From the NCBI RefSeq assembly GCF_003334385.1, contig NZ_QOWN01000085.1: 4,444 nt of DNA. One strand, 5' to 3'. Positions 298 to 4,444 of this stretch are shown piece after piece (within the stretch, counting starts at the first letter, position 1; every line of letters starts with the position of its first letter). Position numbers and translations under genes: made by a program. This DNA is from Escherichia coli (lineage in GTDB: Bacteria; Pseudomonadota; Gammaproteobacteria; Enterobacterales; Enterobacteriaceae). Under the pieces are notes generated by a model. It saw only the letters and a list, made by a program, of their open reading frames with translations, was not told where the DNA came from and made no database searches.

Positions 298-1098
298 ATG
301 ACCACTATTACCAAAGAACGTATTGAATTGTTCATTAAAAATCCGCTTGAAAACGGGCTTACTCGTGGCGAACAAATGGAACTGGCACGAATTGCACTGG
401 CATCACTGGAACGCGAACAGATTCGCCACGAGCATGCCAAATGGTCTGACTCCACATTTGGCTGCGTTGGCCCCATTGGTCCACTGAAACACCTCTCAAA
501 AGAGGCACTGGAAGCCGCAGCCGAACCAGACGATCTTAGCGAGTGGGCTGATATGCAGTTTCTGTTGTGGGATGCACAGCGCCGTGCTGGCATCAGCGAT
601 GCTGAAATTACCGCTGCTATGGAAGATAAATTGAAGATCAACATGGAGCGCCAGTGGCCTGAGCCAAAAGATGGTGAGCCTCGCTTGCACATTAAAGAAC
701 CCGGCAACTCTCCGGTAATTCCGGATGGTTTATCCACGGTATGCGCTGAGGCTTATCAGGTTGTAGGAGTTATGGCAGATGCGCTTGGTGTATTCGGTGA
801 TGCAGCAGTACAGAAAGTTCTGGATAACCTGTCACAGCAAAAACTTGTTCACAGAGATGTGCTGCCGTTCTCGCTTCCGGTAACTCCGGATGGTTGGATA
901 AGCTGTAGTGAGCGAATGCCGGATGATGGTCAGCACGTAATTATTTTATGTGATGGCGCATTCGTTCTTTATGCGCAATATCGAGACGGTGAGTTTTTTG
1001 ATGTAGTCCGTAATGGTGATGAATTTTTCGAAACACAGAGCCGCAATGTAACCGACTGGATGCCGTTACCAGAACCGCCGCAGGAGGTGCGCCAATGA
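298..1098 (+). CDS. prophage protein with a MazG-like NTP pyrophosphohydrolase-type N-terminus (DUF550-like) and a DUF551-like C-terminus
   Basis: This is a 266-aa ORF with ATG at 298 and a GGTG-type SD upstream. The N-terminal half has an all-alpha MazG-like pattern (EHAKWSD...GPIGPLKHLSKEALEAAAE...EWADMQFLLWDAQRRAGIS...KLKINMERQWPEP). The C-terminus (DGWISCSERMPDDGQHVIILCDG...VTDWMPLPEPP) matches the DUF551 signature as I remember it. The stop overlaps the next start as ATGA. Confidence 0.8.
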   Translation: MTTITKERIELFIKNPLENGLTRGEQMELARIALASLEREQIRHEHAKWSDSTFGCVGPIGPLKHLSKEALEAAAEPDDLSEWADMQFLLWDAQRRAGISDAEITAAMEDKLKINMERQWPEPKDGEPRLHIKEPGNSPVIPDGLSTVCAEAYQVVGVMADALGVFGDAAVQKVLDNLSQQKLVHRDVLPFSLPVTPDGWISCSERMPDDGQHVIILCDGAFVLYAQYRDGEFFDVVRNGDEFFETQSRNVTDWMPLPEPPQEVRQ

Positions 1099-1886: not shown

Positions 1887-2165
1887 ATGGCGCACGATAC
1901 CAAATTATACAATTCTGATAATTCAGCCGTCTTTGCCAGCAGGCACGGGCGGCGTTCTCATGCATTCAAATCTGACAGGTTACAGCACGCCCCATGCACT
2001 GAAGAACAGGCCGAATGGCTGATTCAGAACTACCGCAGACGTGGGTATGAGTTTAGGAAAACCCTCAGCCTCGATTATCGTCACTGGATAATCTCCGTCA
2101 GGCTTCCTTACTCTGAACGCCCACCGCGTCCGTCCCGCACATTCCAGCAACGCATCTGGAGGTAA
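1887..2165 (+). CDS. hypothetical basic protein, 92 aa, in the position occupied by rem in the K-12 Qin prophage
   Basis: ATG 1887 is the only ATG in this frame, and the stop TAA 2163-2165 lies 1 nt before the GTG start of the next gene. The RBS is weak and the product is Arg-rich. The TTG-start extension to 1806 falls inside the hok terminator T-tract and is rejected. The rem assignment rests on position only. Confidence 0.4.
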   Translation: MAHDTKLYNSDNSAVFASRHGRRSHAFKSDRLQHAPCTEEQAEWLIQNYRRRGYEFRKTLSLDYRHWIISVRLPYSERPPRPSRTFQQRIWR

Positions 2166-2166
2166 C

Positions 2167-3213
2167 GTGCGGGTATTACTTCGACCTGTTCTGGTACCGG
2201 AACTCGGGCTGGTGATCGTTAAGCCGGGCCGTGAATCCATGCCGGTATTCCACAATACCCGGGTACTGGTGGAGCCGGAACCGAAAAGCATGCGTAATCT
2301 GCCGTCCGGAGTCGTTCCTGCCGTTCGACAGCCGCTGGCAGAGGATAAAACATTACTGCCATTTTTCAGCAACGAACGGGTGATTCGTGCTGCGGGTGGC
2401 GCTGGTGCACTGTCTGACTGGTTATTACGTCACGTGAAATCCTGCCAGTGGCCACACGGTGATTATCATCACAGTGAAACCGTCATACATCGTTACGGTA
2501 CCGGCGCGATGGTGTTGTGCTGGCACTGCGACAACCAGCTGCGTGACCAGACTTCCGAATCACTCGGGCAACTTGCTCACCAAAACCTGTCAGCATGGAT
2601 GATTGACGTCATACGCCATGCAATGAATGGCACGCAGGAGCGGGAATTATCGCTGGCTGAATTATCCTGGTGGGCTGCCTGCAATCAGGTGGCGGACGCG
2701 CTACCGGAGGCAGTATTGCGTCGTTCGCTGGGATTACGTGCGGAAAAAATCCGCCCGGTGTACCGCGAAAGCGACATCATACCGGGAGAACCGACCGCCA
2801 CCAGCATACTGAAGCAGCGCACAAAAAATCTTGCGCCGCTGCCTCACGCCCACCAGCAAAACCCGCCACAGGAAAAGACGGTGGTCAGCATTGCTGTTGA
2901 TCCGGAGTCTCCGGAATCTTTAATGAAGCGACCTAAACGTCGCCGTTGGGTAAATGAGAAATATACGCGCTGGGTAAAGACACAGCCGTGTGCGTGTTGT
3001 GGTAAGCCTGCTGACGATCCGCATCACCTGATTGGTCATGGTCAGGGGGGAATGGGGACAAAGGCCCACGATATTTTCACGCTACCGTTGTGCCGGGAGC
3101 ACCACAACGAACTTCATGCAGACCCGCTGGAGTTTGAGAAAAAGTACGGCTCTCAGATTGAGTTAATTTTTCGTTTTCTTGATCACGCCTTTGCGACTGG
3201 CGTGCTCGGGTAA
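2167..3213 (+). CDS. DUF968-type prophage protein (YdfU-like), 348 aa, with a C-terminal HNH-like zinc-finger nuclease motif
   Basis: GTG 2167 is preceded by GGAGG (2157-2161). The C-terminus reads PCACCGKPADDPHHLIGHG...LPLCREHHNELH, a CxxCG...HH...CxxHH pattern resembling HNH nucleases and lambda NinG/Rap. Size and position match YdfU of Qin as I recall it. Confidence 0.8.
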   Translation: MRVLLRPVLVPELGLVIVKPGRESMPVFHNTRVLVEPEPKSMRNLPSGVVPAVRQPLAEDKTLLPFFSNERVIRAAGGAGALSDWLLRHVKSCQWPHGDYHHSETVIHRYGTGAMVLCWHCDNQLRDQTSESLGQLAHQNLSAWMIDVIRHAMNGTQERELSLAELSWWAACNQVADALPEAVLRRSLGLRAEKIRPVYRESDIIPGEPTATSILKQRTKNLAPLPHAHQQNPPQEKTVVSIAVDPESPESLMKRPKRRRWVNEKYTRWVKTQPCACCGKPADDPHHLIGHGQGGMGTKAHDIFTLPLCREHHNELHADPLEFEKKYGSQIELIFRFLDHAFATGVLG

Positions 3214-3225
3214 AAGAGGTGACTG

Positions 3226-3588
3226 ATGCTCATAGATTTGGTTTTACCTTACCCGCCGACGGTGAACACTTACTGGCGACGCCGTGGCAGCACATATTTT
3301 GTATCAAAAGCCGGGGAGCGTTATCGCCGGGCAGTGGTGCTTATTGTTCGCCAGCAGCGACTGAAATTAAGCCTGTCCGGACGGCTGGCAATAAAAATTA
3401 TTGCAGAGCCACCGGATAAGCGTCGTCGTGACCTGGACAATATTCTGAAAGCACCACTGGATGCGCTGACGCACGTGGGGTTGTTAATGGACGATGAGCA
3501 GTTTGATGAAATCAATATTGTACGTGGCCAGCCAGTATCTGGTGGACGGCTGGAGATAAGAATTACAGAGGTGGGTGTGCATGAATAA
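3226..3588 (+). CDS. rusA: RusA-family Holliday junction resolvase, 120 aa
   Basis: The RBS AAGAGG (3214-3219) precedes the ATG at 3226. The protein carries the conserved RusA core (YPPTVNTYW near the N-terminus, acidic catalytic cluster DKRRRDLDNILKAPLDAL...LMDDEQF, C-terminal GGRLEIRITE), which aligns to E. coli RusA from memory. Confidence 0.88.
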   Translation: MLIDLVLPYPPTVNTYWRRRGSTYFVSKAGERYRRAVVLIVRQQRLKLSLSGRLAIKIIAEPPDKRRRDLDNILKAPLDALTHVGLLMDDEQFDEINIVRGQPVSGGRLEIRITEVGVHE

Positions 3589-4270
3589 CCAGTATTTACA
3601 GTTTGTTCGTGAGCAACTCATGATTGCCACTGCAGATCTCAGTGGGTCGACAAAATGCCAGCTGGAAGCCTGGCAGGAAAATGCCCTGTTCGATACAGGG
3701 CGTTACAGACGCAAAAAAATTCGTTACCGCGATGAGGTAACCGGAAAAATGATCACGCGGGATAATCCCCCGATCCAGGGTAAACAATCACTGGCGAAAG
3801 GCTCATCAATTGCGCTGGTCAGTCCTGTTGAGTTTGCAACATCATCGTGGCGGCGTGCCGTTCTGGAACTGGAAGAACATCAGAAGGCGTGGTTGTTGTG
3901 GTGTTATGGCGGAAACATTTGCTGGGAGCATCAGATCGCGATAACGCAGTGGGTGTGGAGTGAATTTAAAACTCAGTCCGGCTCCAGAAAAATTGCAGTG
4001 AAAACGCTGGAGCGTGTGAAGAAGTTGATCTGGCTGGCGGCACAGGATGTCAGAGGATGGGTTACCGGGTGTGAGGTCTACCAGAGACAGGAGCTTGCCA
4101 GACTGTGTGGAGTTAAGCCTGATAACTGGAGCCATAATTATGCGAACTACTGGCGTGAGATGTGCGATATTTTTAAGCGCCTCGATAGAGAATCCTTGAT
4201 TTGCTCCGTGAAAATAAGAGCGCAACAAAAAGCGACCTTTTCACGACGAGATATTGCAAAAGTCAATTAA
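3581..4270 (+). CDS. putative late-gene antiterminator (Q-like, QuuQ-type), 229 aa
   Basis: ATG 3581 follows GAGGTGG (3568-3574) and overlaps the rusA stop by 8 nt; the ORF track's GTG at 3575 is 2 codons upstream. Its position immediately after rusA and before an intergenic promoter-plus-terminator region is the canonical Q location in lambdoid phages. I cannot confirm the family by motif from memory. Confidence 0.5.
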   Translation: MNNQYLQFVREQLMIATADLSGSTKCQLEAWQENALFDTGRYRRKKIRYRDEVTGKMITRDNPPIQGKQSLAKGSSIALVSPVEFATSSWRRAVLELEEHQKAWLLWCYGGNICWEHQIAITQWVWSEFKTQSGSRKIAVKTLERVKKLIWLAAQDVRGWVTGCEVYQRQELARLCGVKPDNWSHNYANYWREMCDIFKRLDRESLICSVKIRAQQKATFSRRDIAKVN

Positions 4271-4282
4271 ATCGCGTATGTT
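4254..4282 (+). promoter_or_regulatory. candidate late promoter (pR'-like): -35 TTGCAA 4254-4259, 17-bp spacer, -10 TATGTT 4277-4282
   Basis: The hexamers were read by eye at the 3' end of the Q-like gene. A transcript from here would meet the terminator at 4332-4359 after about 50-70 nt, resembling the short terminated late leader RNAs on which Q proteins act. Confidence 0.25.
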
Positions 4283-4331
4283 TCGTATAAATCTGATATT
4301 TTGCCGATTTTGTACGTGATGGCAAAGTAAG

Positions 4332-4359
4332 AAAAAACCACCGCCAGGTGGTTTTTTTT
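4332..4359 (+). terminator. intrinsic terminator (tR'-like), possibly bidirectional
   Basis: An A6 run precedes the stem CCACC/GGTGG with loop GCCA (4338-4351), followed by T8 (4352-4359). The flanking A and T runs could extend the stem and would allow termination in both orientations. Confidence 0.75.
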
Positions 4360-4444
4360 ATGTCCGAAAATCGCGTCAGTACAGTAAACGCGCTGGTGGC
4401 GGTGAATACCTGTCTTTCAGCTTGCTGGCTTTTTCGACAAGAGT
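4360..4444 (+). CDS. 5' end of an ORF beginning immediately after the terminator (MSENRVSTVNALVAVNTCLSACWLFRQE..., partial, first late-region gene?)
   Basis: The ATG at 4360 is open to the window end (28 codons). There is no obvious SD and the start abuts the terminator T-tract, so the call is weak. The hydrophobic stretch could fit a holin-type late gene, but that is speculative. Confidence 0.2.
   Translation, partial: MSENRVSTVNALVAVNTCLSACWLFRQE

Follow-up and report, generated by a model that had tools for sequence, protein, structure and literature searches.

In this study, we analysed a 4,444-nucleotide stretch of an Escherichia coli genome (contig NZ_QOWN01000085.1; hereafter the window) that carries a ydfU-like gene (positions 2167-3213, + strand) encoding a 348-amino-acid protein of the DUF968 family. 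We favour, with moderate confidence, the view that this protein is a two-module DNA nuclease of a lambdoid prophage, in which a degenerate N-terminal finger is combined with a C-terminal nickase acting on recombination or replication intermediates. The C-terminal finger would nick DNA in a divalent-metal-dependent manner, and the N-terminal module, as a degenerate duplicate of an HNH finger, would have a non-catalytic targeting, DNA-binding, or partner-binding role. By analogy with P1 Ref and phiNM1 Gp16, the closest characterised relatives, the protein would act during lytic growth and nick D-loops or other recombination or replication intermediates, perhaps on DNA to which RecA is bound. The nicked intermediates may then be processed by the adjacent resolvase, which is RusA here and an unrelated resolvase in distant relatives.

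It should be noted that the HNH assignment of DUF968 and its RusA/Q neighbourhood were already published in 2017, when DUF968 and DUF1364 were placed together in His-Me finger Group 7, with YdfU and YbcO named as members and RusA and Q noted as neighbours (Jablonska et al. 2017, PMC5714182). Our analysis leaves the family assignment unchanged, and the present gene adds a member. Our additions are a probable identity for the N-terminal half, the homology to P1 PdcB, and a connection to two RecA-stimulated nickases that have been characterised in experiments.

Identity and modules of the YdfU-like protein

Judging from its sequence, the gene is an intact copy of ydfU, a widespread E. coli prophage gene of the DUF968 family. 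Its product is 86% identical to E. coli K-12 YdfU over 348/349 residues, matches the Pfam family DUF968 (PF06147) with residues 160-345 across the whole model (model positions 1-171 of 171, E 3.4e-75), and matches phrog_96 over the full protein length (E 2e-174). In close relatives, RefSeq annotates the identical frame and GTG start as a 349-amino-acid "DUF968 domain-containing protein". An earlier reading of this DNA, made from the sequence alone (the sequence-only reading), had proposed a DUF968 protein of 348 amino acids, and these matches bear it out. The full-model profile match, the collinear full-length homology to YdfU, and a predicted beta-beta-alpha-metal fold with zinc and catalytic residues are all consistent with membership in the DUF968/YdfU family. 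Weaker Pfam matches to HNHc_6 (E 1.4e-4) and RecA_dep_nuc (E 0.48) were found on residues 267-319, and searches of PDB sequences with the whole protein and with its N-terminal module returned a marginal match to YbcO (E 0.89) and otherwise noise. Of 5,426 complete E. coli genomes, 5,066 contain matches to the window. Many temperate phages, Stx-converting ones among them, also match the region, with the gene labelled ydfU, DUF968, or "HNH endonuclease".

Conservation was assessed in an alignment of 35 full-length homologues, 28-83% identical, which were retrieved by searching 1.84 billion representative proteins. The AlphaFold2 model of the full-length protein based on this alignment (predicted local distance difference test score, pLDDT, 88.6) showed an N-terminal module (residues 1-190) and a C-terminal module (residues 249-343), joined by a linker of low confidence. 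The C-terminal His-Me (HNH) finger nuclease domain (residues 249-348; positions 2911-3210, + strand) contains the predicted zinc ligands C275, C278, C309, and H312 and the catalytic-type residues H286, H287, D302, H313, and H317. The CxxCG...HH...CxxHH motif reported by the sequence-only reading is indeed present, as C275-A-C-C278-G, H286-H287, and C309-R-E-H312-H313. The catalytic-type set H286-H287-D302-H313-H317 was intact in 31/35 homologues, the zinc quartet CCC(C/H) was kept in 28/35, and the P256-K257 motif was invariant. Overall, the catalytic-type His/Asp and the zinc Cys/His residues were retained in 28-35 of the 35 diverse homologues. A lack of such conservation, together with profile searches showing no HNH or NinG relationship, had been named in advance as what would speak against the sequence-only reading.

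BLASTP of the nuclease core against Gp16 of the Staphylococcus aureus phage phiNM1 gave 41% identity (E 6e-10). In hhalign comparisons, the C-terminal domain aligned with YbcO at a probability of 81% (E 1e-5) and with Ref at 37% identity over 54 columns (E 8e-5). The proposed resemblance to HNH nucleases thus holds, given the beta-beta-alpha-metal model, the identity to the Gp16 core, and the conserved catalytic and zinc residues. A zinc-stabilised beta-beta-alpha-metal (His-Me/HNH) finger with a full set of catalytic-type residues is therefore a well supported prediction for the C-terminal 100 residues.

The N-terminal half had been described as a region of roughly 250 amino acids to which no function could be assigned. 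An N-terminal part does exist. However, it is made up of a folded module (residues 1-190; positions 2167-2736, + strand) and a variable linker (residues ~191-248; positions 2737-2910, + strand), and the DUF968 model already begins at residue 160. No Pfam family was matched over residues 1-160. When residues 1-195 were modelled alone, they gave a pLDDT of 94.5 and a predicted template modelling score (pTM) of 0.81, and the module contained, besides helices and a small beta-sheet, a beta-beta-alpha unit in which strands 105-110 and 113-118 precede helix 119-125. The second Cys/His cluster noted earlier in this half is present at residues 93-123 (positions 2443-2535, + strand), as C93-QWPHGDY-H101-H102 ... 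C118-W-H-C121-D-N, and is conserved at four positions: C93 in 35/35 homologues, C/H101 in 34/35, C118 in 35/35, and H/C121 in 35/35. W119 (34/35) and D122 (33/35) were also conserved, as was N123, and Q94 was nearly invariant. We suggest that C93, H101, C118, and C121 form a putative four-ligand zinc site on the beta-beta-alpha unit. Positions 101 and 121 co-varied among the homologues (CCCH in 19, CHCC in 9, CHCH in 6) and were never both Cys, as expected of a shared metal site, although sequence relatedness inflates this pattern.

The fold of the N-terminal module suggests what this site may be. Its top fold matches were almost all HNH nucleases, with modest Z scores of up to 5.1. However, no catalytic histidine was conserved among the 35 homologues, in which H97, H102, H108, and H120 all varied, and variation was also seen where strand 1 ends, the expected place of an HNH general base. 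The lack of a conserved catalytic histidine suggests that the modelled N-terminal module probably holds a second, degenerate, non-catalytic His-Me-like zinc finger. We did not find such a finger in the DUF968 N-terminus described in the published His-Me classification.

The hhalign comparison of the N-terminal module with the C-terminal domain gave a probability of 3%, with C93 placed on the CxxC knuckle and LCWHCDN on LCREHHN. Cross-searches between the N- and C-terminal hidden Markov model (HMM) profiles were weak and fell in the same register (best E 5e-4 among the 35 sequences), and a second BLASTP segment aligned the N-terminal module to the HNH core of Gp16 (E 0.097). With an hhalign probability this low and marginal HMM cross-searches, we rejected sequence-level proof of a duplication, and support for it stays at the level of the fold. 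A Foldseek search of the N-terminal module against AFDB50 returned the same family only. Proteins that seemed to carry this module in other architectures (P0145, P0156, P0162, P0186, P0189, and P0239) were also rejected, since they show one Klebsiella-type N-terminus, tail-fibre-like sequence, and differing break points; these fusions are most likely chimeric assemblies or gene calls.

The linker varied in length and sequence across the alignment and had a pLDDT of 46-58 at residues 221-240. It contains a (K/R)-E-S-D motif at residues 201-203 (positions 2767-2775), in which E201 was kept in 26/35 homologues and D203 in 27/35, and which may be a short interaction motif. D245 is conserved in the linker as well.

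The adjacent resolvase and the early-right operon

The ydfU-like gene is followed after a 12-nt gap by rusA (positions 3226-3588, + strand), as the sequence-only reading had recognised. This gene encodes a RusA-family Holliday junction resolvase of 120 amino acids (phrog_34, E 2.6e-54) that is 42% identical to K-12 RusA. The equivalents of D70, D72, K76, and D91, which we take to be the catalytic Asp/Lys residues of K-12 RusA, are kept, and the R-D-L-D-N, K, and DD motifs are aligned. Both the profile match and the catalytic Asp/Lys positions place the product in the RusA resolvase family (PF05866).

To describe the gene context, we used a sample of 80 IMG/VR loci, all at least 90% identical, in which hok-rem-ydfU-rusA-Q was the dominant order. 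The order is YdfU-RusA-Q in Serratia phage BZS1 and RusA-YdfU-Q in Klebsiella phage KpF5, and in one distant metagenomic relative RusA also comes next after the YdfU-like gene. In two other distant lineages, the RusA slot is taken by an unrelated phrog_190/DUF1064 "Holliday junction resolvase", with Q coming next (such genes lie between the YdfU homologue and Q at L008:1112-1450, L011:4733-5095, and L012:4903-5265). This looks like non-orthologous replacement at a fixed place, and of the arguments from context for a functional link, the swap of resolvase families beside a conserved YdfU-like gene is the strongest. In the prophage DLP12, the stand-alone finger YbcO lies directly upstream of rusA and quuD. 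The suggestion of the sequence-only reading that the two genes belong to a recombination module is plausible, and a recombination role has already been proposed for the DUF968 group (PMC5714182).

The window spans the distal portion of an early-right operon from a lambdoid prophage of the E. coli type, with all mapped genes on the + strand. At its upstream end, a small open reading frame (ORF) matching phrog_1222 (positions 71-295, + strand) precedes a gene at positions 298-1098 (+ strand) whose product of 266 amino acids combines a MazG-like dATP/dGTP pyrophosphohydrolase domain (PF04447, E 1e-41) with DUF551 (E 3e-20). This fusion is a nucleotide-pool enzyme encoded in the same early operon as the ydfU-like gene. 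Positions 1395-1719 hold a complete type I toxin-antitoxin locus of the hok/sok type, in which the sok antisense RNA (positions 1395-1569; Rfam RF01794, 117.6 bits) overlaps the mok/hok toxin ORF (positions 1507-1719, + strand; Hok family, phrog_251). A strong terminator-like hairpin (positions 1788-1805) lies after hok/sok and before rem, so that upstream transcription would need to read through it to reach rem-ydfU-rusA-Q. A match to isrK, a Salmonella prophage small RNA in Rfam, spans the 3' end of the hok transcript and this terminator (positions 1728-1809) and is below threshold (27.8 bits against a gathering threshold of 50 bits, E 0.004).

The rem-like small ORF (positions 1887-2165, + strand; phrog_1212, E 1.6e-33) immediately precedes the ydfU-like gene. 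A Shine-Dalgarno sequence, GGAGG, can be read directly at positions 2157-2161 (+ strand), 5 nt before the GTG start, and the stop codon of the rem-like ORF falls in the spacer between the two. Downstream of rusA, the Q-type late-gene antiterminator occupies positions 3581-4270 (+ strand; phrog_304, E 4.8e-103), and its RefSeq homologue of 229 amino acids also overlaps rusA. The start of Q is most likely ATG 3581, giving 229 amino acids as in the RefSeq relatives, rather than GTG 3575. Whichever start is used, the Q gene overlaps the rusA stop codon (within positions 3575-3588), which suggests translational coupling of rusA and Q. Positions 4277-4361 are where a late promoter, a qut site, and a terminator would be expected, and a bidirectional terminator-like hairpin was found at positions 4332-4357, just 3' of Q. 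An Rfam match to Phe_leader within the same region, below threshold (28 bits against a gathering threshold of 55 bits), probably arose by chance from the hairpin and its T-run.

Proposed function and alternative explanations

Two relatives of the C-terminal domain have been studied experimentally. P1 Ref is a RecA-dependent HNH nickase that nicks RecA-made D-loops (PMC3973344, PMC4330346), and experiments on Gp16 established that it binds RecA and is a RecA-stimulated nickase (PMC12817073). By analogy, we infer that the C-terminal domain of the YdfU-like protein may be a divalent-metal-dependent DNA nickase. Several observations weigh against the function proposed here. We found no assay of a Gammaproteobacterial DUF968/YdfU protein in the literature, so that activity, substrate, and RecA dependence are all taken from relatives and context. 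The N-terminal parts of the two characterised relatives are quite different, being disordered and basic in Ref and NinB-like in Gp16. PdcB of phage P1 (347 amino acids; L003:3405-4448) is homologous along its whole length (residues 1-347, 28% identity, E 8e-40), and H287, H313, and H317 are lost in PdcB and two relatives. Since the PdcB lineage lacks the catalytic histidines and pdcB is non-essential (PMC10695390, PMC10067587), at least one lineage dispenses with the catalytic site. RusA is also not obligatory: it is missing, with ydfU directly before Q, in 3/80 IMG/VR loci and in K-12 Qin, and no resolvase is adjacent in Vibrio phage Len or in P1. Furthermore, synteny in mosaic lambdoid genomes may reflect position and not function.

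Among the other explanations we weighed, a nuclease directed at the host or at competitors is unlikely on present evidence, although part of what is known of the relatives points that way. Such an enzyme would nick the host chromosome or incoming DNA and stall replication as Gp16 does in S. aureus, and so would help the phage to take over its host, to exclude superinfecting phages, or to defend against phages in general. Among characterised proteins, Gp16 is closest in sequence to the nuclease core, and it inhibits both the growth and the replication of its host (PMC12817073). P1 Ref makes the killing of lysogens by ciprofloxacin worse (PMC4713147), and the ydfU-like gene lies next to the hok/sok toxin module. 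However, the protein matched no PADLOC defence family, on which ground we rejected membership in a known defence system, and no immunity-like partner is conserved beside the gene, whose regular neighbour is a junction resolvase with Q after it. Since the gene belongs to the early-right operon and lies beyond a terminator-like hairpin, its expression in the prophage state also seems unlikely, which speaks against a defence role.

It is less likely still that the protein serves chiefly in DNA binding or regulation, as a zinc-finger protein without catalysis and with vestigial HNH residues, for example one that modulates Q-dependent late transcription or recombination proteins. The complete H-H-D-H-H set persists in 31/35 homologues, including lineages that lost the structural zinc site, and its retention even there argues for selection on catalysis. 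Such a role would nevertheless fit the PdcB lineage, which retains the two-module architecture and both Cys clusters without catalytic histidines, as well as the N-terminal module, which is itself a predicted non-catalytic finger. It would also fit a gene placed directly upstream of a late regulator (Q in lambdoid phages, lpa in P1), and one Group 7 member is labelled "phage transcriptional regulator" (PMC5714182). We regard as highly improbable a selfish free-standing homing HNH endonuclease or an HNH cofactor of terminase resembling HK97 gp74. Phage HNH genes often belong to one of these two types (background in PMC12817073), but the ydfU-like gene has a fixed syntenic place with conserved neighbours across genera, and its large conserved N-terminal module is family-specific and not made of NUMOD/AP2-type DNA-binding repeats. 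A role in packaging is also unlikely, since Q and the lysis cassette lie between the gene and terminase, and the terminases of related loci are of the lambda Nu1/GpA type, with their own nuclease domain.

Returning to the two-module nickase, we tentatively extend it to a more specific and rather doubtful proposal for the whole YdfU family. Its members would be tandem His-Me enzymes in which a pseudo-nuclease finger directs an active nickase to RecA filaments or D-loops. Together with RusA or a DUF1064-type resolvase, they would form an interchangeable "nick then resolve" cassette for recombination-dependent replication, and PdcB would have kept the targeting alone. In E. coli K-12, ydfU belongs to the uncharacterised "y" genes. 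If it encodes a RecA- or D-loop-directed nickase working with RusA, effects would be expected on prophage induction and on inter-prophage recombination, including mosaicism and stx mobility, and phage-antibiotic synergy of the type known for P1 Ref would also be affected. Interpreting the N-terminal half as an HNH-like zinc finger that has degenerated points to concrete residues for mutation.

Comparison with known systems

The sequence-only reading had likened the protein to NinG/Rap of phage lambda, a branched-DNA endonuclease, and had placed the gene in the NinG/Rap position. Both proteins belong to the His-Me superfamily, and their genes have broadly similar map locations, late in the early-right operon and ahead of Q. 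However, the two fall into separate His-Me groups, NinG in Group 24 and DUF968 in Group 7 (PMC5714182), and a specific relationship did not stand. Although Pfam matches to DUF968 and to HNH or NinG families had been expected, DUF968 and HNHc_6 were matched and NinG (PF05766) was not at E ≤ 10, and BLASTP against lambda NinG gave no significant match. Homology at the family level was rejected, as hhalign against a 23-sequence NinG alignment covered the knuckle only, that is, 13 columns around PCxxCG, at a probability of 17.6%. The "NinG/Rap position" applies only loosely, to the last early-right genes before Q: the ydfU-like gene lies two genes before Q and lambda ninG three before it, but the genes flanking the former are hok/sok and rem and not nin genes, and in the loci examined no NinG gene was seen within ~4 kb of ydfU. 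The comparison with NinG thus goes too far, since a common superfamily and a similar map position are all that the two share.

P1 PdcB resembles the YdfU-like protein in having both modules and both Cys clusters, and differs in that its catalytic histidines are replaced (HH by Y-I, H313 by Q, and H317 by E). Its gene adjoins phd-doc and lpa instead of a resolvase and Q. pdcB lies directly upstream of the late promoter activator gene lpa, in parallel with ydfU upstream of Q.

P1 Ref (RecA_dep_nuc PF16786, PDB 3plw) has a disordered basic N-terminus, whereas that of the YdfU-like protein is predicted to be a folded zinc module. By profile, the YdfU-like protein falls outside the Ref family (RecA_dep_nuc, E 0.48, insignificant). 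Gp16 shares with the YdfU-like core an identical C-x2-C...H...C-R-E-H-H-x3-H spacing. It is an HNHc_6 (PF16784) protein with a secondary DUF968 match, and the DUF968 and HNHc_6 families cross-match. However, the YdfU-like protein is not of the Orf-HNH (Gp16) type, which has an N-terminal NinB/Orf-like domain and a full-length HNHc_6 match. In phiNM1, rusA lies ~3 kb downstream of gp16.

YbcO of DLP12 and phage 82 (DUF1364, PDB 3g27) is a stand-alone finger of 96 amino acids, without the N-terminal module or the linker. K-12 YdfU, encoded in Qin, is similar along its full length, belongs to the same Pfam family, and occurs in a hok-rem-ydfU-...-Q context; the two loci differ in that rusA separates ydfU from Q in the present prophage and is absent from this place in Qin.

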